64,000 bases of DNA from an uncultured Actinomycetes bacterium (lineage in GTDB: Bacteria > Actinomycetota > Thermoleophilia > UBA2241). The stretch is from the NCBI GenBank assembly GCA_963725665.1, contig CAVRZA010000006.1:64001-128000 (forward strand). The letters run 5' to 3'. This document shows, piece after piece, positions 700-43,037 of this stretch. The notes under the pieces were generated by a model. That model ran no database searches. It was not told where the DNA came from and saw only the letters and a list, made by a program, of their open reading frames with translations. Numbering within the stretch: the first letter of the stretch is position 1; the number at the start of each line of letters is the position of its first letter. The position numbers were made by a program, and so were the translations under genes.

Positions 700-3307
700 G
701 TGGACGTGAGCGTCGACAAGACCGCGATCAAGTCCCTGGCCATGGGCGGCCTGCTCGGGGGCGGCGGAGAGTGTGTCGTCGACGTCAAAGACGGCAAGGC
801 CGTCAGGATCAGGCCGCTCCACTACGACTGGAAGTACGACGGCGAGCAGTTCAACGCCTGGAAGATCGAGCGCGAACGGCGAGACGCTCGAGCCGCTGAT
901 GAAGGCGCTGCCCGCCCCCTTCTCGCTCGCCTACAAGAAGAGGACCTTCTCCCCGAACCGCATCAAGTATCCCGATGAAGCGGGTCGACTGGGACCCCGA
1001 CGGCGAGAGGAACACCCAGAACCGGGGCAGGAGCAAGTACAAGAGGATCTCCTGGGACGAGGCGACGGACATCATCGCCGCAGAGATCCGGCGCATTCAC
1101 AAGAAGTACGGCCCGCTCTGCCATCCTGGCCCAGGGAGACGGGCACGGTGAGTGCAAGACGATCCACACGCCCCACGGCCATCAGGCACGTCTCCTCGAC
1201 ATGATGGGCGGATTCACGCAGCAGGTCCGCAACCCGGACAGCTGGGAGGGCTGGTACTGGGGCGCCAAGCACGTCTGGGGTCAAGGCTTCCAGGGCATGA
1301 TGTCGCCGGCCGCGAACCTCATCAAAGACATCTCCGAGAACGCCGACATGGTCCTCAAGTGGGGCTGCGACGAGGAGACCACGCCCTGGGGCTTCACGGG
1401 GCAGTACGCCAGCCCGCATCTCGCAGTTCTGGACGCGAGCCGGCATCAAGCAAGTGTACATCTGCCCGGACCTCAACTACGCGGCCGCCGTCCACGCCGA
1501 CAAGTGGATCCCCATCCTCCCCAACACCGACGCGGCGCTTCAGCTGGCCATCATCTACGTCTGGCTCACCGAGGACACCTGGAACAAGGAGTACGTCGAG
1601 ACGCACGCCGTCGGCATCGACAAGGTCGCCGACTACGTCCTCGGCAAGGAAGACGGCATCGCCAAGACGCCCGAGTGGGCATCCGCCAAGTGCGGAGTGC
1701 CCGAGTGGACCATCAAGGCGTTGGCCCGGGAGTTCGCCAAGAAGACGACCTCCATCGTCCACTACTTCGGCGGCTCCTTCATCAGAGGGCCGTACTCGCA
1801 TGAGCCCGGGCGGCTGGAGTGCGTGCTCCTGGGCATGCAGGGGCTCGGCGGGCCCGGCGTCCACCAGTGCCAGATGACCTACTTCGGCATGCCGAGGGCC
1901 GAAGGCCTGCGGAGCGTGCGCTTCTTCAACCCCGAGTTGAGTGAACGTCTCACGAAGCCCTGCTGGACCACGGTCCACGCCTGGGGACCGCAGCTCATCC
2001 CCAAGACGCTGATCCAGGACGCCATCCTCAAGCCGCCCCTCACGTTCCACGGGAGCGGCGGCCAGGAGTGCCAGACAGAGGAGCAGTTCGAGAAGTTCAC
2101 GTATCCCATCGCCAAGGAGAAGGGCGGCACTCCCATCCACATGATGTGGACCGACACCCCGTGCCGCATCACGTGCTGGAACCACGGCAACTGGACCATC
2201 GAGGCCATGCGCGACCCGAGCATCGAGTGCGTGGTCGCCCAGCATCCGTGGCTCGAGAACGACTGCCTCTACGCCGACCTGATCCTGCCGGCCAACACGA
2301 CGCTCGAGGTCGAGGACATCGTCACCAACACCCGGCAGGGCCCGCACTTCCAGAGCGTCGCCATCCAGGAGCAGGCCATCCAGCCGATCGGCGAGTCGAA
2401 GAGCGACTACGAGATCGTCCTGGCGATCGCCGAGAAGCTGGGGATGGGCGAGCAGTTCAGCGGCGGCTTCACGGTCCGCGATCTGCAGAAGATGGTCTTC
2501 GACAACATGCGCATGGAGGAGCTCACGACCTGGGAGGAGTTCGAGGAGAAGAAGTACTACGTCTACTCCGTCGCCGAGGACTGGGAGAACGACCCGCCCG
2601 GCTTCAGGCTCTTCTACGAAGACCCGAAGGCCAATCCACTGCCGACTCCGACGGGCCTGCTGGAGTTCTACTCCGAACGCCTGGCGCAGCACTTCCCGGA
2701 CGACAAGGAGAGGCCGCCTTACCCGAAGTGGATCGAGAAGGGCGAGACTCACGACGAGCGGCTCTCGAGTGAGAAGGCCGGCATGTTTCCCCTGCTCGTC
2801 ATGTCGAACCACCCGCGCTGGCGCACACACGCTCAGGGCGACGACATCAGCTGGGCCAGAGAGACACCCACCGGCAAGGTGCTCGGCTTCGACGGCTACA
2901 GGTACGAACCGGTCTGGATCAATCCGATCGACGCTGCAGGAGCGCGGCATCAAGGACGGCGACGTGGTCAAGATCTTCAACGAGAGAGGCATCGTGCTCG
3001 TCGGGCGCGCGCGTCTGGGAGAGGATCATGCCCGGCGTGGTCTACGTCGACCACGGGGCTCGCCACGACCCGATCATCCCCGGCAAGGTCGACCGCGGCG
3101 GCGCCATCAACACCATCGCACCGAACGGGATCACCTCGAAGAACGCGTGCGGCCAGGCTACGAGCGGCTACCTGGTCGACGTGCAGAAGGTCACGAAACG
3201 ACGAATGGGAAGCCTGGCGCAGGGACCACCCCGAGGCCTTCGCCAGGGAGTACGACCAGGCCGCCGGGCTGCGCTTCGACGCTTGGATCGAGGGAGGCAC
3301 GGAGTAG
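700..3307 (+). CDS. bis-MGD Mo oxidoreductase, pyrogallol transhydroxylase (AthL)-like alpha subunit, divergent paralog 1; several apparent sequencing frameshifts
   Basis: VDVKDGK..RIRPLHYD, RNPDSWEGWYWG (Ser ligand), HADKWIPILPNTDAAL, SNHPRWRTHAQGDD, DRGGAINTI; no N-terminal Fe-S motif or Tat signal; pieces in ORFs 700, 773, 1201, 1454, 2769, 3028. Confidence 0.9.
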
Positions 3308-4126
3308 ATGAAGGCATTCGTTATTGACGTCGGCCTCTGCGTGGGCTGCTACGCCTGCCAGTTCGTCTGCAAAGACGAGCACGTCGGCAACGACTGGTCG
3401 CCCATCGCCAAGCCTCAACCCGACACCGGCCAGTTCTGGATGAGGCTCGACGAGCATATCCGGGGCACCGTGCCCAAGGTCGAGATGCACTACGTGCCGA
3501 ACCCGTGCATGCACTGCGACGAGCCCCCGTGCATCCCCCCCTGCCCCGTCGAAGGCGCGATCTACAAGAGGGACGACGGGCTGGTCATCATCGACTCGGT
3601 CAAGTGCACCGGCTGCAAGGCGTGCGTCGATTCCTGCCCCTACGACGCCATCTATTTCAACGAGGACCTCAACCTCGCCCAGAAATGCACCGGCTGCGCC
3701 CACCTGCTCGACGGCGGCGAGTGGAAGACGACCCGTTGCGCCGATGCCTGCCCCACCGAGGCCATCAAGTTCGGGGAGGAGAGCGAGCTCACGGACCTGA
3801 TCGCGCAGGCCGAGGTGCTCAAGCCCGAACTGGGAGCCAAGCCCCGGGTCTACTACCTGAACATCCCCCGGAAGTTCGTCGCCGGCACGGTCTACGACCC
3901 GATCGAGAAGGAGGTCGTCATCGGGGCCACCTGCACCCTCGTCGGCTCCGGCGACGGCGACAAGCAGACCGTCGTCACCGACGCCTTCGGCGATTTCTGG
4001 TTCCGCGGTCTGGCGGACGGCACGTACTCACTCACGATCGACGCGGAGGGCTTCGCCGCCAAGAGCTACGCCGAGATCAGCACGGAGAAAGACGTGAACC
4101 TTGGCGACATACCACTGTCCAGATAG
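3308..4126 (+). CDS. Transhydroxylase beta-subunit-like Fe-S protein (four Cys-cluster motifs plus C-terminal beta-sandwich)
   Basis: CVGCYACQFVC, CMHCDEPPCIPPC, CTGCKACVDSC, CTGC..RCADAC; KPRVYY; TDAFGDFWF domain as in BthL; abuts alpha stop codon. Confidence 0.92.
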   Translation: MKAFVIDVGLCVGCYACQFVCKDEHVGNDWSPIAKPQPDTGQFWMRLDEHIRGTVPKVEMHYVPNPCMHCDEPPCIPPCPVEGAIYKRDDGLVIIDSVKCTGCKACVDSCPYDAIYFNEDLNLAQKCTGCAHLLDGGEWKTTRCADACPTEAIKFGEESELTDLIAQAEVLKPELGAKPRVYYLNIPRKFVAGTVYDPIEKEVVIGATCTLVGSGDGDKQTVVTDAFGDFWFRGLADGTYSLTIDAEGFAAKSYAEISTEKDVNLGDIPLSR

Positions 4127-4213
4127 GCGACTAGCGGGCGAGAGCGGTCGCCGCGAGACCACTCGCGCGGCCTGCCACGAAGACCCAGTCCGTGGCAAGG
4201 AGGACATCAGGAC

Positions 4214-5005
4214 ATGAGATGGGGAACGGTCATCAACCTGGCGAAGTGCATGCGCTGTCACGCCTGCATCGCCGCCTGCAGGATCGAGCACTTCCTGCCC
4301 CTCCACGTGACCTGGTCGAAGCTGATCGCCTACGAAGTGGACGAGGGTGGCGAGGTGGACGTCACCACGTACCCGGTGCGCTGCAACCAGTGTGCCGACG
4401 CTCCGTGCACGCACGTTTGCCCCACCGAAGCCTCACACCAGCGCGAGGACGGTATCGTGGTCATCGACTCGGACAAGTGCATCGGATGTCGCTACTGCGT
4501 CATCGCCTGTCCGTATCAGAACCGCACCTTCCTCTCGAAGGACAAGAACCCCGGCTACTTCCCCGGGTACGAGAAGACCAGGTTCGAGAAGAAGGGCGAG
4601 AAGCTCTACCCGCACCAGGTGGGCACCACCGAGAAGTGCAACTTCTGCGCCGAGCGTCTCGACGCCGGCATGGCTCGCGGCCTGCAACCGGGCAAGGACC
4701 GCGACGCCACGCCGGCGTGCGTGAACGTCTGTCAGGCGCGCGCCCTGACCTTTGGCGACCTCGACGACCCTGACAGCGACGTCTCGATCCTGATCCGCAA
4801 GTACAAGGGCTACCAGCTGCGCGCCGAATACGGGACGGATCCGTCGGTCTACTACATCGACTACAGGCTGGGCGGCTCGCCCTCGAACAAAGCGCCGCGT
4901 GAAGCTCAAACGGGCCATCACATCCAGCACCTCAGCTCCGTGGACCGCGACGCGTACCGGCGCATCTACGGGCACGAGCAGGCTGAGGCGGAGGTGCAGT
5001 CATGA
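4214..5005 (+). CDS. DmsB/NrfC-like 4Fe-4S electron-transfer subunit
   Basis: CMRCHACIAAC, CNQCADAPCTHVCP, CIGCRYCVIACP, KCNFC..PACVNVC, FGDLDDPDS. Confidence 0.93.
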   Translation: MRWGTVINLAKCMRCHACIAACRIEHFLPLHVTWSKLIAYEVDEGGEVDVTTYPVRCNQCADAPCTHVCPTEASHQREDGIVVIDSDKCIGCRYCVIACPYQNRTFLSKDKNPGYFPGYEKTRFEKKGEKLYPHQVGTTEKCNFCAERLDAGMARGLQPGKDRDATPACVNVCQARALTFGDLDDPDSDVSILIRKYKGYQLRAEYGTDPSVYYIDYRLGGSPSNKAPREAQTGHHIQHLSSVDRDAYRRIYGHEQAEAEVQS

Positions 5006-5982
5006 AGGTCCAGACCAACCGACAGTGGATCACCACCCACGAGTGGATGGTCAAGCCCATGCGCCAGAAGGAGTGGATCTCGGGCAAGGGCATCCTCGTG
5101 TGGCTCGCCGAGGTCTTCTCCGCGCTCGGCATGGGGACGCTACCTCGTCGGCCTGCTCGCGGGGCTCGGCGGCATCACCACCGGCGCGTGGTGGGCGACG
5201 GTGCTCGGCTGGGCTGCTCATCGTGCTCTTCAAGCTGCCGCTGCACCTGGTGTACCTGGGCCGGCCGCTGCGCTTCTGGCGCGCGATCCCGCCGTTCACC
5301 AGAGGCGTGGAAGACGTCGTGGCTCGCCCGGGGGATGTTCTTCTCGATCGTGTTCGTCGGCGCCGGCTTCCTGCAGATCGTCTTCTGGTACCTGCTGCAT
5401 TGGGTCGATCTGAGCGCCTCCGCCGCCGACATCGTGACGGTGCTCGCCTGGATCGTCGGCATCGTCGCCGGCGTGTTCATCATCCTCACCGGCGTCTATT
5501 GCGGCTTCGCCATGAGCTACTGCAAGAGCCTGCCGTTCTGGAACACCGGGCCTGCTGCCGATCGTGTTCGTCATCATGGGCATCGCCGACGGTCTGGCCC
5601 TGACGATGGGCGTCAGTCTGATGACGGGCAGAGACGTTCCCATCGAGACGCTCGAGTCCTGGAGCCGTATCGTGCTCGTGGTCAACGCCCTGCTGATCGC
5701 CGGGTACCTGATCCGCGCGTACCACAGGCACTCGACCGCCGAGCTGGCCGCTCATGACCTCATCAAGGGCAGCACGGCCTGGGTCTTCTGGATCCTCCTC
5801 GTGGTCCTCGGCATCGTCACCCCCCTGGCCATCTCATTCGTCGACCATGTTCATGGCGGAGTCGAATGCCGAGCCGCTGCTGATCGTCGCGATCATCTGT
5901 CACACCGATCGGCGCCTTCGCGCTCAAGTACTCCGTCCTCAAGGTCGGCATCTACCGGTCCGTCCTTCCAGGGGTCGCGTGA
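5002..5982 (+). CDS. NrfD/PsrC-like integral membrane anchor (frameshifted)
   Basis: Multiple TM helices, LHLVYLGRPLRFWR, SWLARG, YCGFAMS..LPFWN; ends KVGIYRSVLPGVA*; overlaps Fe-S gene by ATGA. Confidence 0.82.
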
Positions 5983-6016
5983 GGACGGCCTCCGGGCCTG
6001 TCAGGAAAGGGAGACA

Positions 6017-8215
6017 ATGGCTGACCGCAAGCAGATTCTGACGACGTGCAAGAGCTGCCACGGCGGCTGCGGCGTGATCGTCACCGTCGAGGACGGCGTG
6101 ATCGTCCACATCCAGGGCAACCCCGACTCGCTCACCAAGGGCACGATGTGCTCCAAAGGCCTCTCGAGCATCCAGCACATCGACAACCCCTACCGCGTCA
6201 AGTACCCCATGAAGCAGGTCGGGCCCAAGGGCGAGGGCAGGTGGCAGCGCATCTCGTGGGACGAAGCGCTCGACACGATCGCAGACAAGATGAAGGAAGC
6301 GATCCGCGACTACGGGCCGCACACCATCGCCGTCTCGCAGGGCACCGGCCGCGGCTACAACCGCTACACGATGAAGATGGCGCGCTCTCTCGGCACCGGC
6401 AACGCCATCACGCCGGGCTACGTCTGCCACAGCCCCCGGCTTGGCCTCTACGGCCTGGTCACTGGTTACGGACGGCTGTACTGCGACTACCACGGCTGGG
6501 GAGGGGAGTTCCCCAAGACCCAGATCTCGTGGGCCAAGCAGCTGGAGATCAGCAGCGCCGATTCCGAGATGGCGGTGTGGTTCATCAACTCGCTGGACTA
6601 CTGCAAGAACCTGATCATCATCGATCCACGCGCCAGCGCCTTCGCCTCTCGCGCGACGCTTTGGATCCAGCCCCGACCGGGCACCGACTGCGCTCTGGCC
6701 ATGGGCATGATGAACGTGATCTACGAAGAGGAGCTCTGGGACAAGGAGTTCTGCGACAACTGGACCTTCGGCTTCGACGAGCTCCGCGAGCGCGTGCGGG
6801 ACTTCACCCCTGAGAAGGTCTCCGACATCTGCTGGATCCCCAAGGAGCACGTCATCGAGGCGGCGAGGATGTGGGCCATCGATACCCCCGGCTGCATCCA
6901 GGTCGGCAGCTCGCTCGAGCGCCAGGCGAACTGCGGTCACACGCTGCGCGCCATCACCTGCCTCTTGGGCCTGGCCGGCAACATCGAGCGGCCGGGCAGC
7001 ATGATCACCTGGGTGCTCCCCGAGACCGGGCTCATCGAGGACTTCTTCCTGGAGCTGCCGATCACCGACGAGATGAAGAGCAAGATCATCGGCGGCGACA
7101 AGTACAAGATGGGCGCCGCCCGCACGTGCAACCCCGACACGATGGTCAAAGCCATCAACGCCGGCAACAGCCCCATCAAGGTGTGGTTCAGCGTGGGCGG
7201 GCAGCAGATCGTGCACATGGCCAACACCAATGAGGTCGTCGCGGCCATCGAGAAGGTCGACTTCATGGTTCACACCGATCTCTTCATGGGCCCGATGGCG
7301 GAGGCCGCGGACATCGTGCTGCCGGCCGCCCACTGGCTGGAGCTCGACGACGTCTACGACATGCACCCGCGCTTCATGATCGAGGCGCACAACAAGGTCA
7401 TCGACCCGCCCGGCGAGGCGAAGGCCGACGCGTGGATCTTCAACGAGGTCGGCAAGCGGGTCGTTCCCGACAAGTGGTTCGACGACGTCGAAGACATGCT
7501 CGATTACGAGGTCAGAAAGGGCAAGAACGGCACCATGACCTGGAAAGACTTCAGCGAGCAGCTGGTCAGCGGCTGCTTCGGCCCCGACCAGGTGTACTAC
7601 AAGTACAAGACCAACTACTGGAACGAAGGCGGAGGGTTCCCCACTCCGAGCGGCAAGTTCGAGTTCCACTCGAACCATCTCGAGTCGCTCGGGTACGACC
7701 CGCTGCCGGTATTCAGCGAGCCGGGCGAAAGCCCGGTCTCCACGCCGGAACTGTTCAAGGAGTACCCGCTTGTCATGAGCTCGGGCTTCCGGCAGCCCTT
7801 CTACTTCCTCGGTCAATACCGCAACATCCCCTGGCTGCGGAGCTACATGGAGTACCCGCAGTGCCAGCTGCACCCGGAGACGGCGGCGCAGTACGGCGTC
7901 GAGGACGGCGACATCGTCTGGATCGAGTCGCCGCGCGGCCGCGTGCGCCAGAAGCTGCGTGCCTTCCCGGGGATCAAGAAGGGCGTGCTCATGGCCACCG
8001 CCAACTGCTTCTACCCCGAGGAGCCGGCCAAGGGCTACCACGGCGTCTTCATCTCGAACCCCAACGTCCTTACGAGCAACGACCATCTCGACCCGATGTA
8101 CGGCTCACCCGATCTCACCTGCCTTCTGTGCAAGGTCTACAAAGCCAGGCCGGAGGAGCTGAAGGAGAGGGTCTTCCAGACCGAGGAGTACGGCACCGTA
8201 CCTTCCCCGGAGTGA
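6017..8215 (+). CDS. bis-MGD Mo/W oxidoreductase, acetylene hydratase-like clade, catalytic subunit
   Basis: RBS GGAAAGGGAG; CKSCHGGC..MCSKG 4Fe-4S motif, RISWDEALD, GYVCHSP Cys ligand, ADIVLPAA, TPSGKFE, SNPNVLT..DPMYGSPDL; no Tat signal. Confidence 0.9.
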   Translation: MADRKQILTTCKSCHGGCGVIVTVEDGVIVHIQGNPDSLTKGTMCSKGLSSIQHIDNPYRVKYPMKQVGPKGEGRWQRISWDEALDTIADKMKEAIRDYGPHTIAVSQGTGRGYNRYTMKMARSLGTGNAITPGYVCHSPRLGLYGLVTGYGRLYCDYHGWGGEFPKTQISWAKQLEISSADSEMAVWFINSLDYCKNLIIIDPRASAFASRATLWIQPRPGTDCALAMGMMNVIYEEELWDKEFCDNWTFGFDELRERVRDFTPEKVSDICWIPKEHVIEAARMWAIDTPGCIQVGSSLERQANCGHTLRAITCLLGLAGNIERPGSMITWVLPETGLIEDFFLELPITDEMKSKIIGGDKYKMGAARTCNPDTMVKAINAGNSPIKVWFSVGGQQIVHMANTNEVVAAIEKVDFMVHTDLFMGPMAEAADIVLPAAHWLELDDVYDMHPRFMIEAHNKVIDPPGEAKADAWIFNEVGKRVVPDKWFDDVEDMLDYEVRKGKNGTMTWKDFSEQLVSGCFGPDQVYYKYKTNYWNEGGGFPTPSGKFEFHSNHLESLGYDPLPVFSEPGESPVSTPELFKEYPLVMSSGFRQPFYFLGQYRNIPWLRSYMEYPQCQLHPETAAQYGVEDGDIVWIESPRGRVRQKLRAFPGIKKGVLMATANCFYPEEPAKGYHGVFISNPNVLTSNDHLDPMYGSPDLTCLLCKVYKARPEELKERVFQTEEYGTVPSPE

Positions 8216-10149: not shown

Positions 10150-10864
10150 CGCACCTCAGTCCCCACACCAAGATGCCTGCCCTTGATGCTCTCGTTGTCG
10201 ATCAGCTCTTCCGGTGTCGACTCATAGACAATAGAACCCTTGCTCATGATGTAGACGTAGTCGGCGACTTCCATCGCCATGCCGAAGTCCTGCTCCACCA
10301 GGAGGATCGAGTGGCCCGCTCGCCTTGAGCTGCTCGATCACCCTGAACACCTCCTGCAACGACTATGGGCGCCAGCCCCTCAGAGGGCTCGTCCAACAAG
10401 ATCAGGTCGGGGTTGGTCATGAGGGCTCGGGCGATCGTCAACATCTGCTGTTCGCCGCCGCTCAGGAGGTTGCCCTTGTTCTTGCTCCGTTCTTTCAGCT
10501 TGGGAAAGAGCGTGAACACCTTCTCCAGCGTCCAGGGGTCCTGTTTGTCGCCGGTCCGGGCGGCCATCGTCAGGTTCTCGGTCACCGACAGCGACGGGAA
10601 GATCATCCTCCCCTGAGGGACGAGGCCGATGCCCAGCCGGGCGATCCTGAAGGGCGGCAGGCCGACGATGTTCTGGCCGTTCGAGGACGATGGCGCCCCG
10701 GCGCGGCGGCGTGAGCCCAATGATGGAACGGATGGTCGTCGTCTTTCCCATGCCGTTCCTGCCCAGGAGAGCGACGCAGGTCGCGTCCTTGACCTGCAGG
10801 GATACGCCCTGGAGCATGTAGCTGTCGCCGTACCAGGTGTGGATGTCATCTGCAGCTCGATCAT
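10150..10864 (-). CDS. Branched-chain amino acid-type ABC transporter ATPase (LivF-like), frameshifted; 3' end approximate
   Basis: LLGRNGMGKTT, LVPQGRMIF, LSGGEQQML, LLDEPSEGLAP, VEQ. Confidence 0.88.
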
Positions 10865-10869
10865 CGCTC

Positions 10870-11636: not shown

Positions 11637-11639
11637 GTA

Positions 11640-31696: not shown

Positions 31697-31771
31697 CCGT
31701 CCTCCAAACGTCCACAGGCCTGCCGACGCCGACAGGGCGCCGCGCGGCGCTGCGCCGCGCGGCGCCGACTC

Positions 31772-32608: not shown

Positions 32609-35209
32609 TGGACCGCGCCCTCCCACTTCTCGACCTGTACGAGACAGGAGTTGTTGGACATCGCCGTCGAGGTCGGCGTGATGAAGCGCTTGTTGGTGAG
32701 GATGTTGACGCAACCGGCGATGTCAGTGGACTCGCCCGGCTTGCCCAGCGGCAGGTAGTCGGCGCACGACTCGTAGGCGTGCACCGTGCCCGGCGCCAGA
32801 CGCTCGGTGACCTGGGCGCAGAGGATGACAGAGCCGCGGTCGTTGAAGGCGCGGATCAGGTCGCCGTCGGCGATACCCCGCGCCGCCGCGTCCTTGGTGT
32901 TGAGGCGCATCACGTAGTAGTAGTGGCCGTCGTCTTTGAGCACGCGGTGGTCCTTGACCTCGTTGAGCCAGCTCCCCTTGGAGTCGCCCATGGTGTGGAA
33001 GCTGAAGCGCGGGTGCGGGCTCACCATCTGCAGCGGGTACTTGCCGTACAGCTCCTCGGTGCGATGGCCCTCCCAGCTCGGGATGTACTGCGGCCCCATG
33101 GCCGGCCGCTCGGGGTCGACCACGTCCATCTCGAGGCGCTTGATGGCCGAGCTGACGAACTCGATCTTGCCCGACGCCGTCTGCAGGCCCTTGAGCCCGA
33201 TGGTGTCGCCGGGCCTGGGACCCCAGTCAGGCGTGTCGCGCACGCGCCCCTCGGCGAACCAGCGCATGGCCGGCGTCGAGACGTGGTCCTCCGGGAAGGG
33301 CACGACGAAGTAGCCCTTCTTCTCGAACTCCTCCCAGGTGATGTGCTTGGGCAGGTCCGTCGCGGCGAAGTAGAGCTTGCACCAGTCGTACTCGTCGCGG
33401 CCGCCGTCGGTGTAGAGATCGCCGATACCCATGCGCTCGCAGACCGCGGCGAAGATGTCGTAGTCCGACTTGCTCTCGCCCAGCGGCTCGATGCACTTCT
33501 TCTGGAAGACGATCACGCGGTGGTTGGTCTGGATGTAGTTGTCGGGGATGTAGCCCGAGCAGTTGCCGAACTCGCTCATGTCCCAGCGCTCGAAGTTGGT
33601 GCAGGCCGGCAGGATGAGGTCCGCGTACTTGGCCTCGCCCTCGATCCAGATCGACTGGTTGACGACGAAGCTGACCTTGCCCTCCTGGTAGGCCTTCACG
33701 TAGCGGTTCGTCTCCTGCATGGTGCCGAAGAACGAGCCCCCGTAGCGCCAGTACATCTCGACGAAGGGGTAGCCGGGTGCGGGGTACTGGTACTTCTGCA
33801 TCTGGCTCTCGATCGAGGAGCCGCAGAAGCCCTTGCCGCGCCACTCGAAGCGCTCGTGCATCATGGCCTCGGGGATGCGCAGGCGCGGGATGGCCTGGCC
33901 CTCGGTGGAGTCGTGGGTGTTGACGGTGGGGTGCGAACCGGTGCCCGTCGGCGAACATGCGATACGTCCAGCGGTAGGCGGCCGCCGACTTCTCGGGGTC
34001 GCCGGAGATGCCGCCCTCGGCGTAGCCGGGGAAGATGAACGACTCGTCGCTGGGCGCGCCCTGCGAGGTGCCCCAGATGTTGCTGCCCGGCTTGCCGTAC
34101 CCCTGCATGGCGGCGAGGGCCACCATCGTGCGCGCCCACTCGTTACCGGTGGCCGAGCGGCAGGCGCCGCCCCAGCCGCCCAGGCCGCCGGCGGCGAGCA
34201 TCGTCTTCTTGGCGCCCCACTCGCGCGCCAGGGCGCGGATCTCGCGCGCCGGGATGCCGCACTCGCCCTCCGCCCACTGAGGCGTCTTGGGCACGTTGTC
34301 GCTCTTGCCGAGCACGTAGTCCTTCCACTCGTCGAAGCCGACGGTGTGCTCGCGCACGTAGTCCTTGTCGTAGAGATCCTCGGCAAACCAGGTGTGGGCG
34401 ATGCCGAGACCGAAGGCCACGTCGGTGCCGAGGCGCGGCGCGAACCACTTGTCGCTGAAGAGCTCGGCCGTGTGATTGAAGTAGGGGTCGACGAACACCA
34501 TCTTGAGGCCGAGCTCTTTCATCCAGTAGCGGCGGCAGGTGCTCTCGAAGGCGGAGTAGATGCCGCCGCCGGTCGTCTCGGGGTCGGCCGACCAGAAGAC
34601 GATCATCTCGCTGTGCTTGAGCGCGTCCTCGAGCAGGTCCCACTGCTCGGGGATGCCGAGGCGGTGGCTGTTGCCCCACATCGGTATGGCACCCCAGTGC
34701 CATCCCTCCCAGCTGTCGGGGTTGTGGGCGCACTGGGAGAAACCCATGAGGTTGAGGAAGCGGTTGTAGGCGCTGTGCCGGTAGCCGACGTTGCCCCAGA
34801 GGTGATGCGAGCTCTCGGTGGTCATGATGGAGCCGGGGCCGATCTCACGATGGCAGCGCTCGACCTCGTCGGCGACGATGTCGAGCGCAGCCTCCCAGCT
34901 GATGGGCTCGTAGCCCGAGATCCCGCGGTTGCGGACGTTGCGCGCGCCCTTGTGGTCGAAGTCGACGCGCTTGAGCGGCGTGAGGATGCGCTTGGGCGAG
35001 TAGACCATGGAACGCTGCGCCTGCGCGTGCGGCGACAGGGTGGTGCGGCGCGGCGGCGTGAAGCGGCGACCCCGCGCCTCGATGACCCAGTCGCCCTTGT
35101 CGTCGTCGTCAAGGTCGATCGGGAACATGCGGACGATGCGCCCGTCCTTCACGTCGACGAAGAGAGGTCCCCCTGTCGTGCTGTTGGTCAGTCTTACGAC
35201 GTCCCCCAT
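32605..35209 (-). CDS. athL: Pyrogallol-phloroglucinol transhydroxylase alpha subunit (AthL-like); one frameshift near 33940
   Basis: MGDVVRLTNSTTGGP, SSHHLWGNVGYRHS, HNPDSWEGWHWG, LAAGGLGGWGGACR, FPGYAEGGISGD, NCSGYIPDNY, SPHPRFS.HTMGD; matches recalled Pelobacter acidigallici AthL segments. Confidence 0.9.
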
Positions 35210-35460: not shown

Positions 35461-35593
35461 ACTCCAAGCCCTTCGTCCTACGGCACTCGCTACGGACGCC
35501 GGGCCGTACCATGGATAGACCATGGGGCGGCGACGGTCGCCGTCGTGGGCCCGCGGTGGAAACGCCCGGACCTCCTCGTGTTTGGAAAGGAGT
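35461..35593 (+). ncRNA. Molybdenum cofactor (Moco) riboswitch / MOCO RNA motif
   Basis: P1 ACTCC/GGAGT; CCTA..CTACGG P2; GGAAAC P4 loop; 3' CCTCCTCGTGTTTGGAAAGGAG containing the RBS; directly upstream of modA. Confidence 0.85.
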
Positions 35594-35598
35594 CGGGG

Positions 35599-36469
35599 AT
35601 GTTGCATTCGACCGCGCGCGGTGCGCGCCCACCCGCCGCGGATCCGCATCGGCGGCCTCACGACGAACCCCGCGACGAGAAGTCGGCCGGTCTGCGCTCT
35701 CGCTCCTGGTGCTGCTGCTCGTGGCCCTGCGCTGGCGTTGCTGGCCGGCGCGTGCGGCGGCGGCTCCTCCGCGACCGGGAACGCCAGCCCGCCGACCAAG
35801 CTCACGGTCTTCGGCGCCGCGTCGCTCACCGACGCGTTCACGAAGCTCGGCACCGACTTCACCGCCGCGCACCCCGGCGTGAACGTGACCTTCAACTTCG
35901 CCGGCAGCCAGGATCTCGTCGCCCAGCTCCAGCAGGGCGCCCCCGCCGACGTGCTGGCGACGGCCGACACGGCCACCATGGACAAGGTCGCCGAGCCTGG
36001 TCGGACACGCCCCAGGTGTTCGCCGGCAACAAGCTCGAGATCGCCGTGGCCCCCGGGAATCCGCAGCACATCACCGGCCTCGCCGACCTTGCGAACCCGA
36101 TCTCAAGGTCGTCCTCGCGGCGCCCGAGGTGCCGGCGGGCAAGTACGCGCGAGCAGATCCTCGAGCGAGCCGGACGTCGACGTGAAGCCGGTCTCTCTCG
36201 AGGAGAGCGTCAAGGGAGTCGTGACGAAGGTCGTCGCTGGGCGAGGCCGACGCAGGTATCGTCTACGTCACGGACGTGTCCGCCGCCAAGGGCAAGGTCG
36301 ACAGGCGTGGTGATCCCCGAGAGCCAGAACGTCGTCGCCACCTATCCCATCGCCGTCGTGAAAGCGAGCGAACAGACGCAAGACGCGCAGTCGTTCGTCG
36401 ACATGGTCCTCTCATCTCAGGGCCAAGCAGATGCTGCAGAGCTTCGGCTTCTTGCCGCCGCCCCAGTGA
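35599..36469 (+). CDS. modA: Molybdate ABC transporter substrate-binding lipoprotein, frameshifted
   Basis: LAGAC lipobox, VFGAASLTDAF, FNFAGS, GAPADV.ATAD, FAGNKL, VPAG.Y, GIVYVTD, YPIA. Confidence 0.88.
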
Positions 36470-36517
36470 GAGGAAGGCAGGGGTCGCACGCGAGCGTGGT
36501 GGCGGGAGGCCGATCCA

Positions 36518-37456
36518 GTGACGGACCGGCGACTCCTGGGCCCCGGCCGCGCGGCGGCGAAGCGGGCACGGGACTCGCCGTCGTCGCCGGCGACTCCATG
36601 GCGACCGCGCCGGGCCGAGCCGGCGCCGTGGGCGACGCCGCCAGAAGACGGCGCGCCGCGACTCACGCGTCGCGGCAGCGGCGGCGCGCCCCTCGGGTTC
36701 GTGCCGCTCGCGGTGGTCGCGGTCACGTTCCTGACCCTGCCACTGGTCGCCCTCCTCGTGCGCGCCCCGTGGCGCGACCTGCCCGGCGACCTGACGGCGC
36801 CCGGAGTGCTCACCGCCCTGCGTCTCTCGCTCGTGTGCTCGCTGGGAGCGCTCGCCATCTCGCTGGTCTTCGGCGTCCCGCTCGCCTGGCTGCTCGCCCG
36901 CGTCCGCTTCCGCGGTCGCAACGTCGTGCGCGCCCTGGTGCTGCTGCCCATGGTCCTGCCGCCCGTCGTCGGCGGCGTCGCCCTGCTCCTCGCCTTCGGC
37001 CGCAACGGTCTCGCAGGCCAGTGGCTCGACCGGGTCTTCGGCGTCACGCTGCCGTTCTCGACCGCCGGGGCCATGCTCGCCGAGACGTTCGTCGCCATGC
37101 CCTTCCTCGTCATCACCGTCGAGGCCGGCATCCGCGCCATGGACCGGCGCTACGAGGACGCCGCCGCGACGCTCGGCGCCGGCCGCTGGACCACCTTCCG
37201 CCGGGTGACCCTGCCGCTGATCGCGCCCTCCTTGGCCGCCGGCGGCGCCCTGTGCTGGGCGCGCGCCCTCGGTGAGTTCGGCGCGACCATCACCTTCGCC
37301 GGCAATCTGCCGGGGACGACGCAGACGATGCCGCTGGCGGTCTACATCGCCCTGCAGAACAATCCGGACGCGGCGATCACCCTCAGTCTCGTGATGCTGG
37401 CGATCTCGCTGACGGTGCTGGTGGGCTTGCGCGGCCGCTGGTTCCCCTCGCGATGA
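36518..37456 (+). CDS. modB: Molybdate ABC transporter permease (start may be downstream)
   Basis: ALRLSL, LPMVLPPVVGG, YEDAAATLGA, WARALGEFGATITFAGN. Confidence 0.93.
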   Translation: MTDRRLLGPGRAAAKRARDSPSSPATPWRPRRAEPAPWATPPEDGAPRLTRRGSGGAPLGFVPLAVVAVTFLTLPLVALLVRAPWRDLPGDLTAPGVLTALRLSLVCSLGALAISLVFGVPLAWLLARVRFRGRNVVRALVLLPMVLPPVVGGVALLLAFGRNGLAGQWLDRVFGVTLPFSTAGAMLAETFVAMPFLVITVEAGIRAMDRRYEDAAATLGAGRWTTFRRVTLPLIAPSLAAGGALCWARALGEFGATITFAGNLPGTTQTMPLAVYIALQNNPDAAITLSLVMLAISLTVLVGLRGRWFPSR

Positions 37457-37493
37457 CCGCCCGGGCGACGTTACCCGCAGGCGGAGGCCGACC

Positions 37494-38553
37494 GTGAGCC
37501 TCGAGGCCGTCGTCGGCCTGCGCAAGGGCACCCTCGACCTCGACGTCGAGCTGGAGGTGGCGAGCAACGGCGTCGTCGTGCTGCTCGGTCCCAACGCCGC
37601 CGGCAAGACGACACTGCTCCGCGCGCTCGCCGGCCTCGTGCCGCTGGAGCGCGGCCGGGTCGTCCTCGACGGCGTCGTCCTCGACGACCCGGCGGCCGGC
37701 GTGCGCGTGCCCACCGAACGGCGGCCGATCGGCGTCGTCTTCCAGGACTACCTCCTCTTCCCGCACCTCTCGGTGCTGGAGAACGTCGCCTTCGGGCCGC
37801 GATCGAGCGGCGCCGGGCGCACCGTGGCGCGGGAGCACGCCCTCGCGCTGCTCGACCGCGTCGGGCTCGTCGACTGCGCCGCCGCGAAGCCGCGGGCGCT
37901 CTCGGGCGGGCAGGCGCAGCGGGTGGCGCTGGCGCGCGCTCTCGCGACCGACCCGCGTCTCCTGCTGCTCGACGAGCCGCTCGCGGCCATGGATGCCGGC
38001 GCGCGCGCCGAGCTGCGCCGCGGCCTGAGCCGGCACCTCGCCGCGTTTCCCGGGATCTGCCTCGTGATCACCCACGACCCGATCGAGGCGATGACCCTCG
38101 GTGACCATCTCGTCGTCGCTGGAAGCCGGACGCGTGGTGCAGTCCGGGACCCCGGACGAGCTCTCCTCGCACCCGCGCTCGCGCTACGTGGCCGAGCTGC
38201 TCGGCCTGAACCTGTACCGCGGCCGTCCCGAGCAGCGCTCGATCGTGCTCGCGAACGGCCGGCGCCTGATCGCCGCCGACCCCGTGCCGCACGAGGGTGA
38301 AGTGTTCGCCGTCATCCCGCCGCGGGCGGTCTCGCTGCACCGCGCCGTCCCCGAGGGCTCGCCGAGAAACGTATGGGAGGGCACGGTCGGCGACCTCGAC
38401 GTGGCCGGAGATCACGTCCGCGTGCACGTGGGCGGCGACCTACCGATCGTCGCCGAGGTCACGCCGGCGGCGGTCGCCGCCCTTCGCCTCGGCGAGGGCG
38501 GCCCGGTCTTCGTCTCGGTCAAGGCGCTCGCGGTCGAGGTCTACCCGGCGTGA
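37494..38553 (+). CDS. modC: Molybdate ABC transporter ATPase with TOBE domain, one frameshift
   Basis: GPNAAGKTT, VFQDYLLFPH, LSGGQAQR, LLLDEP, ITHD, SPRN, AEVT..VKA. Confidence 0.9.
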
Positions 38554-38701
38554 GGTGGCGCCGGTGTTCGCCGTGACGCAAGGACTCCAGTCTGGTCTGG
38601 TACCGCGGAGGTTCTCGTAGCCTCGGGACGTGTCCATGCGGTCGCAACCCCGGGCGCCGCTACGCTTCTCGGACGCCCTCCTCTCCCGTAGCATCTACGG
38701 C

Positions 38702-39278
38702 ATGGACCATCCCGACCACGTACACCGACCGCACGGCGACGATGGCGACCAGGCCCGCGGCGGCGCGGACGCGCCGCCGCCCGGCCTGGTCGCCATCGTC
38801 GGCAAGAGCGACTCCGGCAAGACGACCCTCATCGAGAAGCTCGATCCCCGAGCTGCTGAAGCTGGGGCTGCGCGTCGGGACGGTGAAGCACGACGCGCAC
38901 AGCTTCGAGATCGACCATCCGGGCAAGGACTCCTGGCGCCACGGCCAGGCCGGCGCTCTCGCCTACGTCATCTCCTCGAAGGAGCGCCTCGCGTACATCG
39001 CCAAGCTCGACGGCGAGATGCCCCTCGCCGACATAGCGCGCCGCTTCTTCTCCGACTTCGACCTCGTCGTCGCCGAGGGCTACAAGCGCTCGGCGCCTCA
39101 CCTCGTCGAGCTCTTCCGCGCCGGCGCCGGCCACTCGGCGCCCCTCTGCGCGCCGGGGGAGTCGCTGGCCGTGGTCACCGACGCCCCCCTCGAGCACGAG
39201 CACCGCTTCGGCCTCGACGACGCCGCCGGCCTCGCGCGCTTTCTGGCCGACCGTCTCGACGCCCTCAGGGTGTACTGA
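38702..39278 (+). CDS. mobB: Molybdopterin-guanine dinucleotide biosynthesis protein B, one frameshift
   Basis: IVGKSDSGKTTLIEKL, VKHDAH.FEIDHPGKDSWRH, DLVVAEGYK. Confidence 0.9.
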
Positions 39279-39600: not shown

Positions 39601-42198
39601 ATGGCGGAAGACATGAGCAAGACGGGAGCCTCCGGCGAGCGAACGCTGGTGCGCGACATCAGCTTCTGCGGCGTGCCCGAGAACGGCTCCAATGCCTCGA
39701 TGGTGGATGTGAAGGACGGCAGGATCGTCCGCATCCGCCCGATGCACTACGACTGGAAGTACAAGCGCGAAGACATGAACCCCTGGAAGATGGAGGTCAG
39801 GGGGTCCACCTTCGAGCCGAGCATGAAGACCCTCATCCCGCCGTACAGCATCGCCTACAAGAAGCGCGTATATTCGCCGGCCCGCATCCGCTACCCCATG
39901 ATGCGTGTCGACTTCGACCCCAACGGCGAGCGCAACCCGCAGAACCGCGGGGTAAGCAGGTACAAGCGCATCTCCTGGAAAGAGGCGCTCGACGTCATCA
40001 CCGGCGAGATGGAGCGCATCAAGGAGACCTACGGTCCGACCGCGCTGCTCTACCAGTGCGACCAGCACGGCGAGAACAAGGTCGTGCAAGCCTGCCACGG
40101 CGCCGGCCGCAAGCTGCTGCGCCAGTGGGGCGGCTTCACGCTACAGATCCGCCAGCCCGACAGTTGGGAGGGCTACTGGTGGGGCAACAAGCACTTCTGG
40201 GGCTGTGAGCCGGTCGGCCAGGGCAAGCAGAGCAACCTGCTCTGGGACATCTCGAAGAACGCGGAGCTGTTGCTCTTCTGGGGCTGCGACCAGGAGACCA
40301 CCCCCTGGGGCTGGCAGGGTCAGCTTCCCAGCCGACTGAGCTACTGGTGGACCGAGCTCGGCATCAAACAGATCTACGTGTGCCCCGACCTCAACTACGC
40401 GGCCGCCGTGCACGCCGACCGCTGGATCCCGGTCCTGCCGAACACCGACGCCGCCCTCTATCTGGCGATCACCTACCGCTGGTTCAAGCGGGGCACCTAC
40501 GACAAAGAGTACCTCGCCACACACGCCGTGGGCGTCGACAAGTACGAGGCCTACGTCATGGGCGAGGAGGACGGCATCCCGAAGACGCCGGAGTGGGCTG
40601 CGCCCATCTGCGGCGTCCCGGCCCGCGTCATCAAGGCCCTCGCCGACGAGTGGGCGAGCAAACGCACCACCGTGGTCATCGGCAACGGCGGCCCCGGCAT
40701 CCGCGGCCCCTACGCCACCGAGCCGGCCCGCCTGCAGGCCATCTGCCTGGCCATGCAGGGTCTCGGCAAGCCGGGCGTGAACCAGGCCAAGATGATCGAG
40801 TGGGGCCTTTTCGACAAGCCCGATCAGTACGCCCAGCCCAAGCCGTTGCGCGTACCCAACCTGCGCAGCGCCTACACCGGCGGGCATCCCGACGAGTCCA
40901 ACCATCCGTCGTTCATCCCCAAGACGTACGTTCCCAAGGCGATCCTCGAGGGCGAGTGCGACTGGTGGGGCTGCGAGTCCGAGACCGCCGACCGCGTGAA
41001 CCAGTTCGAGCACTACAAGTACCCGGCCGACGGCTGTTCCAAGATCCACATGGTCTGGACGGACTCGCCGAGCTGGATCACCTGCTGGAACTCGGGCAAC
41101 GACTACGTGCGCGCCATGCGGCACCCCGACATCGAGTTCATGTTCGCCCAGCACCCGTGGCTCGAGAACGACTGCCTGCTGGCCGACATCATCCTGCCGG
41201 TGAACACGAAGCTCGAGGAGGACGACATCGCCGGCGACATCTTCAGCGGGCAGTTCAACCTTCTCTTCCCCGAGCACAAATGCGTGGAGCCGCTGGGCGA
41301 GTCGTTCAGCGACTACGAGATCGCCTGCATGATCGCGGAGCGTCTTGGGCTGCTGGAGGAGTACACGGGCGGCAAGTCCATCCCCGAGCTCATCAAGCAC
41401 GGCTACGAGACCTCGCGCTGCGACGATCTCATCAGCTGGGAGGAGCTCAACGAGAAGGGCTACTACGTGGTCCCCACGGCCGACGGCTGGGAGGATGTGC
41501 CGGCCGGCTTCTACAACTTCTACAAGGACCCGGAGAAGTACCCCCTCAGCACCCCGACCGGCAAGCTCGAGTTCGAGGCCACCGGCCTGCTTGAGCACTT
41601 CCCCGACGACGTCGAGCGGCCGGCGGTGCCGAAGTGGGTCGCGCAAGGGATCAGCCACGAGGAGACCATCGGCACCAAGCGCTCCGAGAAGTATCCGTTG
41701 CTCGTGTGCTCCAACCACCCGCGCTGGAGCGTCCACTCGCAGCACGACGACATCACCTGGCTGCGTGAGATCGCCACCTGCAAGGTGACCGGTCCCGACG
41801 GCTACCAGTACCACCCGATCTGGCTGCATCCGTCCGAGGCCGAGAAGCACGGCATCAGAAGCGGCGATGTGGTGTCCATCTACAACGACCGCGGCACCGT
41901 GCTCGGCGGCGCCTATGTCACCGAGCGCGTGATGCCGGGCGTGGTCTACATCGACCACGGCGCCAAGTGGGACCCCATCGCCCCCGGCGAGATCGACCGC
42001 GGCGGTGCGATCAACACCATCGTGCCGCGCAACACCACCTCGAAGAACGCCGTGGGCCATGCGGTGAGCGGCTTCCTCGTCAACATCGAGAAGACCGACA
42101 TGGAGGCGCTCAAGCGCAAGTATCCGGAGGCCTTCGAGAAGCCGTTCCATCCGTGCGCCGGGCCCGGGTTGCAGGCCTGCATCGAGGGGAGGGCGTGA
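39601..42198 (+). CDS. AthL-like bis-MGD oxidoreductase alpha subunit, divergent paralog 3 (intact, 865 aa)
   Basis: VDVKDGRIVRIRPMHYD, RQPDSWEGYWWG, HADRWIPVLPNTDAAL, SNHPRWSVHSQHDD, DRGGAINT; closer to the 700-3307 paralog than to the 32605 copy. Confidence 0.93.
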   Translation: MAEDMSKTGASGERTLVRDISFCGVPENGSNASMVDVKDGRIVRIRPMHYDWKYKREDMNPWKMEVRGSTFEPSMKTLIPPYSIAYKKRVYSPARIRYPMMRVDFDPNGERNPQNRGVSRYKRISWKEALDVITGEMERIKETYGPTALLYQCDQHGENKVVQACHGAGRKLLRQWGGFTLQIRQPDSWEGYWWGNKHFWGCEPVGQGKQSNLLWDISKNAELLLFWGCDQETTPWGWQGQLPSRLSYWWTELGIKQIYVCPDLNYAAAVHADRWIPVLPNTDAALYLAITYRWFKRGTYDKEYLATHAVGVDKYEAYVMGEEDGIPKTPEWAAPICGVPARVIKALADEWASKRTTVVIGNGGPGIRGPYATEPARLQAICLAMQGLGKPGVNQAKMIEWGLFDKPDQYAQPKPLRVPNLRSAYTGGHPDESNHPSFIPKTYVPKAILEGECDWWGCESETADRVNQFEHYKYPADGCSKIHMVWTDSPSWITCWNSGNDYVRAMRHPDIEFMFAQHPWLENDCLLADIILPVNTKLEEDDIAGDIFSGQFNLLFPEHKCVEPLGESFSDYEIACMIAERLGLLEEYTGGKSIPELIKHGYETSRCDDLISWEELNEKGYYVVPTADGWEDVPAGFYNFYKDPEKYPLSTPTGKLEFEATGLLEHFPDDVERPAVPKWVAQGISHEETIGTKRSEKYPLLVCSNHPRWSVHSQHDDITWLREIATCKVTGPDGYQYHPIWLHPSEAEKHGIRSGDVVSIYNDRGTVLGGAYVTERVMPGVVYIDHGAKWDPIAPGEIDRGGAINTIVPRNTTSKNAVGHAVSGFLVNIEKTDMEALKRKYPEAFEKPFHPCAGPGLQACIEGRA

Positions 42199-43037
42199 TG
42201 GGCAAGGTCCTCGTCATCGATCTGGACATCTGCAACGGCTGCTACAACTGCCAGGTGGCCTGCAAGGACGAGCACGTGGGCAACGACTGGTCGCCCATCG
42301 CCAAGCCGCAGCCCGACACGGGCCAGTTCTGGACCAAGGTGCACGACAAGGTGCGCGGCCAGGTGCCCAAGGTCAAGGTCACCTACATGCACAGCATCTG
42401 CCAGCACTGTGACGACGCGCCCTGCATCCCGGCGTGTAACGTGAACGCCATCTACAGGCGCGACGACGGGGCCGTGATCATCGACCCCGACAAGTGTCGC
42501 GGCAACCAGCTCTGCATCTCGGCGTGCCCGTATGAGGACGTGATCTACTTCAACGACTCGCTGAACATCGCCCAGAAGTGCACCTTCTGCGCGCACCTGC
42601 TGGACGACGGCTGGAGCGAGCCGCGCTGCGTCGATGCCTGCCCGACCGGGGCCTTCACCTTCGGCGAGGAAGAAGACCTGGCCGAGCTGATCGCGAAGGC
42701 CGAGCCGCTCAAGCCGGGGCTCGACGTGAAGCCGCGCGTCTACTACATCGGTCTGCCCAAGCGCTTCATCGCCGGCGCCGTGTTCGACTCGGAAGCCGAC
42801 GAGTGCACGGAGGGCGCCACTGTGACGCTGACGGATGCCGCCACCGGCAAGTCGCTCACTGCGACGACCGACGGCTACGGAGACTTCTGGTTCCACCAGG
42901 TGGAGCCGGCCGTCTACACGGTCCTCGTGGAGAAGAACGGCTACCTCGCCGAGAAGCTGGGGCCGGTCGACGCCACTCAGATCGACGTCAACGTCGGCGA
43001 CATGGCCGTCTGGAAGGCGGCCGCGGCCGGCGCCTGA
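42198..43037 (+). CDS. BthL-like Fe-S beta subunit
   Basis: CNGCYNCQVAC, CQHCDDAPCIPAC, CRGNQLCISAC, CTFC..RCVDAC, KPRVYY, TDGYGDFWF; TGATG coupling. Confidence 0.92.
   Translation: MGKVLVIDLDICNGCYNCQVACKDEHVGNDWSPIAKPQPDTGQFWTKVHDKVRGQVPKVKVTYMHSICQHCDDAPCIPACNVNAIYRRDDGAVIIDPDKCRGNQLCISACPYEDVIYFNDSLNIAQKCTFCAHLLDDGWSEPRCVDACPTGAFTFGEEEDLAELIAKAEPLKPGLDVKPRVYYIGLPKRFIAGAVFDSEADECTEGATVTLTDAATGKSLTATTDGYGDFWFHQVEPAVYTVLVEKNGYLAEKLGPVDATQIDVNVGDMAVWKAAAAGA

Follow-up and report, generated by a model that had tools for sequence, protein, structure and literature searches.

We analysed a 64,000-nucleotide stretch of DNA (the window) from an uncultured Thermoleophilia bacterium, which corresponds to positions 64001-128000 of contig C6 (CAVRZA010000006.1) in a genome of 3.73 Mb, 12 contigs, and ~66% G+C. 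The window contains three pairs of genes that belong to the pyrogallol transhydroxylase family, each pair consisting of a large molybdenum (Mo) subunit (alpha) and a small Fe-S subunit (beta), and referred to here as copies 1, 2, and 3. Three such pairs had been proposed in an earlier, sequence-only reading of the same DNA, and all of them are present with the quoted motifs in the genes to which they had been assigned; the start of alpha 1, which had been placed at 700, lies at 675. The six genes are located as follows.

675-3307, forward strand: alpha 1 (copy 1), divergent transhydroxylase-family Mo subunit, reading frame broken
3308-4126, forward strand: beta 1, Fe-S subunit with Pfam domain Fer4_11 (8.9e-26) and a C-terminal CarboxypepD_reg-like domain (4.5e-15)
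31772-32608, reverse strand: beta 2, Fe-S subunit with Fer4_11 (9.1e-23) and CarboxypepD_reg, start ATG at 32606-32608
32605-35209, reverse strand: alpha 2 (copy 2), canonical AthL-like Mo subunit with one frame break
39601-42198, forward strand: alpha 3 (copy 3), intact divergent transhydroxylase-family Mo subunit of 865 amino acids (aa)
42198-43037, forward strand: beta 3, Fe-S subunit matching PDB 4v4c_B, the small subunit of pyrogallol hydroxytransferase (E = 2.1e-48)

For all three alpha subunits, the best solved match is PDB 4v4c_A, the large subunit of the pyrogallol-phloroglucinol transhydroxylase AthL/BthL (PgtL) of Pelobacter acidigallici. The E-values against this structure were 7.3e-137 for copy 3 (HMMER), 3.5e-161 and 9e-178 for the N- and C-terminal halves of copy 2, and 1.5e-51 for the 510-aa in-frame piece of copy 1 at 1406-2935, and by these values the resemblance is judged to be beyond chance. 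Copy 3 and the in-frame pieces of the other two alphas contain the domains PF00384 (Molybdopterin) and PF01568 (Molydop_binding). In place of the FS0 [4Fe-4S] domain stands the AhtL-like N-terminal domain PF21423, detected in copy 2 (4.8e-25) and copy 3 (8e-12); the N-terminus of copy 1 is frameshifted, and its orthologue P0272 carries the domain. No twin-arginine (Tat) leader was seen in the alpha N-termini. As for the small subunits, every beta contains, by Pfam, Fer4_11 and a CarboxypepD_reg-like domain, and an alignment of the betas, including those of two further copies described below, revealed 11 invariant Cys and a 12th position that is Asp in beta 2 and in the beta on contig C7, at L082:4102-4938. 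All 12 cluster Cys positions are retained in beta 1 and beta 3. The substituted residue is the fourth Cys of the first cluster motif (CHDCNDCYLADKDE), which is Cys in the other three betas and, in a separate HMMER alignment, also in AthS.

Counting along the HMMER alignments to 4v4c_A bore out the correspondences to AthL residues that had been given in the sequence-only reading: His144 is the first His of SSHH, Asp174 and Ser175 lie in NPDSWEG, Tyr404 in FPGY, and Cys557 and Tyr560 in NCSGY. As had also been claimed, PDSWEG, which aligns to D174/S175, is present in all three alphas (1234-1251, 34703-34720 on the reverse strand, and 40156-40173). The statement that copy 2 alone among the three alphas keeps SSHH, FPGY, and NCSGY (34802-34813, 34022-34033, and 33550-33564, respectively) holds for these strings, but not for the residue His144, which is kept in all three. 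The His144 equivalent is the H of GDGHGE (1135-1152) in copy 1 and of CDQHGE (40057-40074) in copy 3, both motifs being where the earlier reading had placed them; in copy 3 it is H156 by HMMER, and no row of a 36-row alignment deviates at the His144 column. FPGY also occurs at 4559-4570 on the forward strand, outside the three alpha genes.

At the Tyr404 and Cys557 loops, the sequences of copies 1 and 3 match neither AthL nor one another, in agreement with the earlier reading. The Tyr404 loop reads MPRAEGLRSVRFFNPELSE in copy 1 and KPDQYAQPKPLRVPNLRS in copy 3, and the Cys557 loop reads TNTRQGPHF in copy 1 and GDIFSGQFN in copy 3. Through indels, the Tyr404 loop of both copies is ~16-18 residues shorter and the Cys557/Tyr560 loop 8-9 residues shorter. 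At the position of Tyr404 itself, HMMER aligns Arg in copy 1 and MAFFT aligns Leu in copies 1 and 3; at NCSGY, copy 1 has TRQG and copy 3 has IFSG, with the Tyr560 column deleted in both. In the AthL structure, the Tyr404 and Cys557/Tyr560 loops reportedly shape the pocket for the second phenol. An AlphaFold2 (AF2) model of copy 3, with a predicted local distance difference test score (pLDDT) of 88.1 and a predicted template modelling score (pTM) of 0.90, has 4v4c_A as its best fold match (E = 8.4e-79, template modelling score (TM) 0.85, 34% identity). The next fold matches are MtsZ and the dimethyl sulfoxide (DMSO) and trimethylamine N-oxide (TMAO) reductases, at TM 0.77-0.80, and acetylene hydratase is a distant match, at TM 0.60.

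To place the copies within the family, 1.84 billion cluster representatives were scanned, yielding 658 proteins at E <= 1e-30. A FastTree phylogeny was then computed from 66 rows, consisting of 47 full-length representatives, 14 picked orthologues, and the five genomic copies, of which the broken ones were entered with X at the breaks. Copy 2 falls into a five-row AthL-like clade (support 99) together with two representatives and the two further genomic copies, copy 0 and the C7 copy. Copies 1 and 3 fall into a 40-row sister clade (support 96), within a long-stemmed 36-row subclade (support 100). The earlier proposal that the divergent copies belong to a sister subfamily is sustained by this placement, but they represent two orthologous groups (support 100 each) rather than one, and are ~53% identical to each other. 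The Tyr404 column is Tyr in 5/5 rows of the AthL-like clade and in 2/40 rows of the sister clade, and the Tyr560 column is Tyr in 5/5 and a gap in 40/40. The Ser175 column is Ser in 5/5 and 38/40, and the Asp174 column is Asp in 4/5 and 30/40; the His144 column is His in 37/40 rows of the sister clade, and an H-G-E motif occurs in 0/5 and 24/40. The rows of the sister clade are not independent, since 16 of the 40 are copy-1 or copy-3 relatives and 14 of these were chosen by hand. Strong purifying selection acts within each of the two groups: 58% of positions are at least 98% conserved among 121 sequences of the copy-3 group, including CDQHGENKVVQACHGAGR and IFSGQ, and 38% of positions among 113 sequences of the copy-1 group.

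Two further copies were found in the genome. A local tblastn search located a fourth pair, copy 0, at C6:60119-63485, directly upstream of the window.

C6:60963-63485, reverse strand: alpha of copy 0, with its beta below it

The alpha of copy 0 has ~18 frame breaks and is 55% identical to the C7 copy. It retains SSHH, NPDSWEG, FPAY, and ACGGY, and copy 0 is therefore of the canonical type; Tyr404 is kept in copies 2 and 0, and the Cys557 loop, NCSGY in copy 2, reads ACGGY in copy 0. Copy 0 is transcribed away from the IclR gene that extends into the window. The other copy lies on contig C7, which carries an intact AthL-like alpha 92% identical to alpha 2. Positions 1-12558 of C7 are a condensed mosaic of the C6 island, with 98.9% identity to C6:52120-54647, 86.7% to C6:85795-88644, and 90.6% to C6:92662-99235. 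C7 could represent a variant from another strain, a relative binned in error, or a genuine duplication; contamination of the genome is estimated at 5.04%. Directly downstream of beta 2, at 29464-31771 on the reverse strand, Pfam identifies a pyridoxal phosphate-dependent decarboxylase of the aromatic amino acid type and a nitroreductase-family gene, and the same two genes follow the C7 copy (L082:2123-4014) at 94% and 92% identity. The pairing of decarboxylase and nitroreductase with the canonical copy is shared by the C6 and C7 versions of the island.

A complete phloroglucinol-pathway-like gene set is located 10-15 kb upstream of the transhydroxylase cluster. The stretch C6:49037-54657 contains genes for BKACE, a cyclase-family protein, a 3-hydroxyacyl-CoA dehydrogenase, two short-chain dehydrogenases/reductases (SDRs), and an IclR regulator, and beside this set, to C6:56958, lie an ADP-forming acyl-CoA synthetase and a Liv-type ATP-binding cassette (ABC) transporter. 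The characterised enzymes of the phloroglucinol pathway are, as given in sections of PMC10470551, PGR, DPGC, TfD, and TAL; C6:49037-54657 is predicted to encode these four enzyme families. Pfam identifies a second phloroglucinol-pathway-like set inside the window, at 17911-21656 on the reverse strand. Its genes, and the regulator at the left end of the window, are listed below.

20787-21656, reverse strand: BKACE
19968-20729, reverse strand: SDR
18757-19818, reverse strand: thiolase
17911-18753, reverse strand: MoaF
1-626, forward strand, starting at ~C6:63688 upstream of the window: IclR-type regulator (IclR_C, 3.8e-30; HTH_IclR at L081:7688-7999)

The IclR-type regulator sits between copy 0 and copy 1, and the gene order of second alpha, divergent IclR, alpha 1, and beta 1 recurs in 9/12 copy-1 loci of other genomes. 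Near these copy-1 loci, BKACE (78-80% identity) was found in 3/12, the SDR of the window (64-71%) in 4/12, and a Liv-type binding protein in 4/12. Among 151 sampled genomes of the class, 29 contain the enzyme family and 27 contain a DPGC-like gene; 25 have both, four have only the enzyme family, two have only the DPGC-like gene, and 120 have neither.

Copies 1 and 3 belong to the pyrogallol transhydroxylase family. Like AthL, they have an alpha-beta architecture, an AhtL-like N-terminal domain, and the equivalents of Ser175, Asp174, and His144, all of which copy 2 has as well. Unlike AthL, to which they are ~34% identical, copies 1 and 3 have HGE for HHM, are without Tyr404 and the Cys557/Tyr560 loop, and sit in the sister clade. 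Their fold and conserved core are those of the family, two of their loops are remodelled, and their genes are linked to phloroglucinol genes. As a general statement, it is rather likely that they are phenol hydroxylases or transhydroxylases with another substrate. Whether they, more precisely, move hydroxyl groups on hydroxylated aromatics outside the pyrogallol/tetrahydroxybenzene pair is in our judgement evenly balanced. Phenol-directed hydroxyl transfer is suggested by the Ser/Asp/His core, the AthS-type beta, the lack of a Tat leader, and the linkage with phloroglucinol genes, and other substrates are suggested by the loss of the loops, the separate conservation of the two groups, and the coexistence with canonical copies. 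Candidate substrates are hydroxyhydroquinone, resorcinol-type phenols, and hydroxybenzoates. In the proposed scheme, copies 1 and 3 would be functional cytoplasmic alpha-beta enzymes with a bis-molybdopterin guanine dinucleotide (bis-MGD) cofactor, which would hold the phenolate on Mo by the retained core of Ser175 as ligand, Asp174, and His144, and in which the loss of the Tyr404 and Cys557/Tyr560 loops would amount to a remodelled pocket. They would act beside the canonical-type copies 0 and 2, and the phloroglucinol pathway, encoded 10-15 kb upstream, would receive their products.

Several points weigh against this interpretation. The alignments of the two loops are uncertain, and spatially equivalent residues are possible, given the other Tyr, Cys, His, and Trp residues in both loops; furthermore, residues 402-415 of the copy 3 model, which form the Tyr404-equivalent loop, have pLDDT <50. 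The roles of Tyr404, Cys557, and Tyr560 are those that we take them to have in AthL, and the function of the copy-1 and copy-3 groups is predicted from sequence. In the assembly, the frames of both alpha 1 and alpha 2 are broken, and the public contigs without the extra bases, described below, come from relatives (mostly 90-95% alike) and not from the organism's own reads. The surroundings of copy 3 are variable, with only four gene types recurring near its orthologues in 78 loci, namely beta (65/78), ABC ATPase (32/78), IclR (20/78), and MobB (19/78). Finally, the co-occurrence counts for the enzyme family and the DPGC-like gene are not a statistical test, because the genomes are kin.

As to the chemistry of copies 1 and 3, a non-redox hydroxyl transfer between phenols, to which we give somewhat less than an even chance, is favoured over a water-dependent hydroxylation with electron export. 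The latter, in which copies 1 and 3 would be redox phenol hydroxylases of the RhLS or DbhLS type, taking oxygen from water and passing two electrons to an acceptor by way of the three [4Fe-4S] clusters in beta, is rather unlikely, albeit the alternative that survives best. Resorcinol hydroxylase RhLS of Aromatoleum anaerobium and 3,5-dihydroxybenzoate hydroxylase DbhLS of Thauera aromatica AR-1 are also two-subunit cytoplasmic enzymes; they are set beside copies 1 and 3 by description only, not by sequence, and the tree is without RhL and DbhL rows. PMC10100899 treats RhL and PgtL as one 'RhL/PgtL family', in which DbhL is placed as well and whose members are phenol-hydroxylating MopB enzymes with Ser coordination. 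In favour of this alternative, beta 1 and beta 3 have the full set of 12 cluster Cys positions, but the beta subunit does not discriminate redox chemistry because the non-redox AthL has the same Fe-S beta. The lost loops, which presumably hold the hydroxyl-donating co-substrate, would fit an enzyme without a second phenol. Both replacement loops contain Arg (MPRAEGLRSVRFF, TRQG, LRVPNLR), which could bind a carboxylate, for example that of dihydroxybenzoate, and Liv-type binding proteins and transporters recur near the orthologues. A further point in favour of redox chemistry is a Psr-like module of ferredoxin-like, NrfD-like membrane, and Mo-oxidoreductase genes, which follows beta 1 on the same strand at 4214-8215. 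However, a module of this kind was found within 6 kb in only 2/12 copy-1 loci, where it lies on the opposite strand or is separated by other genes, and we rejected it as proof of redox coupling. The phloroglucinol context also accords better with isomerisation to phloroglucinol than with the route via hydroxyhydroquinone used by nitrate reducers.

A second alternative is that all copies are isofunctional pyrogallol-phloroglucinol transhydroxylases, the loop differences being neutral or compensated in three dimensions. AthL is indeed the closest solved relative of every copy, the phloroglucinol pathway genes are present, and multi-copy homologues in RBG-2, RBG-1351, and DEH-C11 are annotated as pyrogallol hydroxytransferases in the portions of PMC3971608 and PMC4959651 that deal with them. 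Nevertheless, copies 1 and 3 share only 34% identity with AthL, both of their loops are shortened by indels (~16-18 and 8-9 residues), and the canonical copies 2 and 0 adjoin them in the same genome. Moreover, the copy-1 and copy-3 groups are conserved across phyla with invariant loops of their own, which is the pattern of distinct functions, and we regard isofunctionality as improbable.

It is slightly less probable still that copy 3 alone is functional here, alpha 1, alpha 2, and copy 0 being true pseudogenes, as the eight frame breaks in alpha 1, the one in alpha 2, and the ~18 in copy 0 could suggest. A frameshift-aware alignment of alpha 1 to the intact 874-aa orthologue P0272 revealed that all eight events are insertions of single bases (near 696, 874, 971, 1119, 1411, 2939, 3000, and 3193), and the read-through contains no stop and is 95% identical to P0272. 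A selenocysteine reading of the in-frame stop at 1202-1204 of the raw translation was rejected, since this stop is out of frame after the insertions are removed. In alpha 2 a single base is inserted near 33952; with this base skipped, alpha 2 is 92% identical to the intact 867-aa C7 copy. Logan contigs from four public runs of three studies were compared over 600-4200, the best public sequencing run matching 0.21 of the sampled words. Contigs of relatives are one letter shorter at 696, 874, 969/970, 1119, 2937/2939, 3001/3002, and 3196, and cover, among the rows listed, 7/8 of the break sites of alpha 1. They prove an open frame in the relatives, not in this organism. Because the relatives' contigs are without the extra base at 7/8 sites, the most likely origin of the breaks in alpha 1 and alpha 2 is error in the consensus, not decay into pseudogenes. 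Furthermore, unrelated genes of the window are broken likewise, among them those for an aminotransferase, an ABC transporter, the AOR-IclR fusion, and ModA.

8751-10036: aminotransferase, frame broken
10244-11639: ABC ATPase, frame broken
21904-24483: aldehyde oxidoreductase (AOR) fused in frame to an IclR gene
24951-26120: enoyl-CoA hydratase fused to a thiolase-like piece
within 29464-31047: decarboxylase, C-terminus affected by a frame change
35522-37275: ModA, frame broken

In favour of real pseudogenes, rpoB on contig C2 is one clean frame of 1243 aa, so that the assembly is not uniformly poor. A frame-switch scan likewise counted 10 candidates in C6:60-80 kb versus a genome mean of 2.3 per 20 kb, although the scan is crude, detects 1/8 of the alpha 1 breaks, has no control genome, and serves as a rough map only. 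A local cause is plausible: the strain-variant contig C7 covers parts of the region, and mixed reads from two strains could have degraded the consensus there.

That copies 1 and 3 are S- or N-oxide reductases (of DMSO, TMAO, or biotin sulfoxide) or act on some other non-aromatic substrate is very unlikely: despite partial NCBIfam matches to bisC_fam, dmsA_ynfE, and TorA, automatic JGI names of 'trimethylamine-N-oxide reductase', the position of DMSO reductases and MtsZ next in the fold ranking, and an MttB-family methyltransferase gene at 44539-46239, no NCBIfam model attains its cut-off (323.5 bits vs 1017.55 for TIGR00509 bisC_fam), the major facilitator superfamily (MFS) and MttB neighbours of copy 3 recur in 0/78 loci, there is linkage to phloroglucinol genes as well as to a second transhydroxylase gene, and an AthS-type beta and AhtL N-terminal domain are present, whereas DorA, TorA, BisC, and MtsZ, which share the Ser-ligated bis-MGD fold (TM 0.77-0.80), lack both an Fe-S beta and the AhtL N-terminal domain; enzymes of the DorA, TorA, and BisC types are monomeric.

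Returning to the reading of copies 1 and 3 as phenol-directed enzymes with substrates of their own, relatives of both are widespread. For copy 3, 5245 homologues at E <= 1e-20 were found among 8000 scored, and the best 120 of the 5245, which are 82-93% identical, come from Thermoleophilia, Dehalococcoidia/Chloroflexota, Aminicenantes, and Actinobacteria metagenome-assembled genomes (MAGs). For copy 1, 3649 homologues were found at E <= 1e-30; the best 120 of the 3649 are 70-95% identical, and Chloroflexi RBG bins are represented at 77-83%. The 78 copy-3 loci from species-representative genomes are all MAG-titled, cover a closed Geopsychrobacteraceae chromosome with two copies at 85%, and include none from a cultured organism, the relatives listed include no characterised or named protein and bear automatic names only, and an exact-sequence look-up of 10 clade representatives returned no characterised name. 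Within the class, the enzyme family (29/151 sampled genomes) is concentrated in two families, designated f4 (20/25) and f1 (8/25). Three f4 genomes contain 21, 23, and 25 AhtL N-terminal domains (21, 19, and 23 above the Pfam cut-off), compared with four in the genome studied here, three in a genome of the window's own family, and none in 14 controls. In G130, G040, and G106, 3-Mb genomes of f4, which is a sister family within the class, the AhtL-type domains often occur in tandem.

The paralogue expansion in f4 would be comparable to those of other substrate-diversified anaerobic enzyme families. The catechol dehydroxylases of Eggerthella and Gordonibacter (Dadh and others) are also bis-MGD enzymes that modify polyphenol rings and have many paralogues per genome; in the part of PMC7028382 concerned with them, they cluster with acetylene hydratase, away from transhydroxylase. 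We tentatively suggest, with more doubt than conviction, that the HGE sister clade is a large radiation of cytoplasmic Mo enzymes that would rearrange or add hydroxyls on many different plant phenols without oxygen, exchanged between phyla of anoxic soils and sediments and reaching ~20 paralogues per genome in one Thermoleophilia family, and that copies 1 and 3 rank among its most conserved members. On this view, one of the two could be a hydroxyhydroquinone-to-phloroglucinol transhydroxylase; such an activity has reportedly been described in extracts of Pelobacter massiliensis, and to our knowledge its genes are unassigned.

Multi-copy 'pyrogallol hydroxytransferases' of uncultured Chloroflexi are read, in parts of PMC3971608 and PMC4959651, as indicating pyrogallol fermentation. 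In the most widespread AthL homologues, the Mo-phenolate core is kept, the residues of the pyrogallol enzyme are absent, and several groups are conserved separately. For this reason, annotations of pyrogallol fermentation from any AthL homologue are probably too specific. We did not find the loop loss, the separate groups, or the Thermoleophilia expansion discussed in the literature that was searched, and the supplementary trees of PMC3971608 (Additional file 2) and PMC4959651 (Fig. S3) may show the clade split. Anaerobic breakdown of tannins and flavonoids bears on the carbon locked in peat and sediments, the retention of which is framed as the 'enzyme latch' debate in sections of PMC10470551. 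If the groups do have distinct substrates, they would offer marker genes as well as candidate catalysts for carrying out hydroxyl chemistry on aromatic rings in the absence of oxygen.

Other genes of the window lie near the three pairs. Between copies 2 and 3 is a molybdate transport locus, identified from the Pfam domains SBP_bac_11, BPD_transp_1, ABC_tran with TOBE, and MobB.

35522-39275, forward strand: molybdate ABC transporter (ModA/B/C-like, frames broken) and MobB

In the Psr-like module after beta 1, the gene order B-C-A is unusual, and the frame of the NrfD-like gene is broken near 5550. The Mo-oxidoreductase of the module starts near 6014, has an FS0 cluster motif at its extreme N-terminus and no Tat leader, and has PhsA as its best NCBIfam match, far under the cut-off. 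On the other side of the island, the MttB-family gene at 44539-46239, which is trimethylamine methyltransferase-like, is convergent to the MFS gene that follows beta 3; both had been considered as partners of copy 3 and were rejected on their recurrence in 0/78 loci (E 1e-10, half-length coverage).

Some members of the divergent clade (the P0123 cluster) are named from Nitrososphaeria and Conexivisphaera MAGs, and a locus titled Nitrososphaerales archaeon has 68% identity to copy 3. These archaeal-named members may reflect transfer or mis-binning. Three paralogues in other Thermoleophilia genomes each contain a single in-frame TGA, which may encode selenocysteine or be a sequencing error, at G118:C10:9572-12073, G088:C11:258615-261113, and G040:C10:471373-473925; against the copy-1 query, the first two are ~39% identical and the third is 59% identical.

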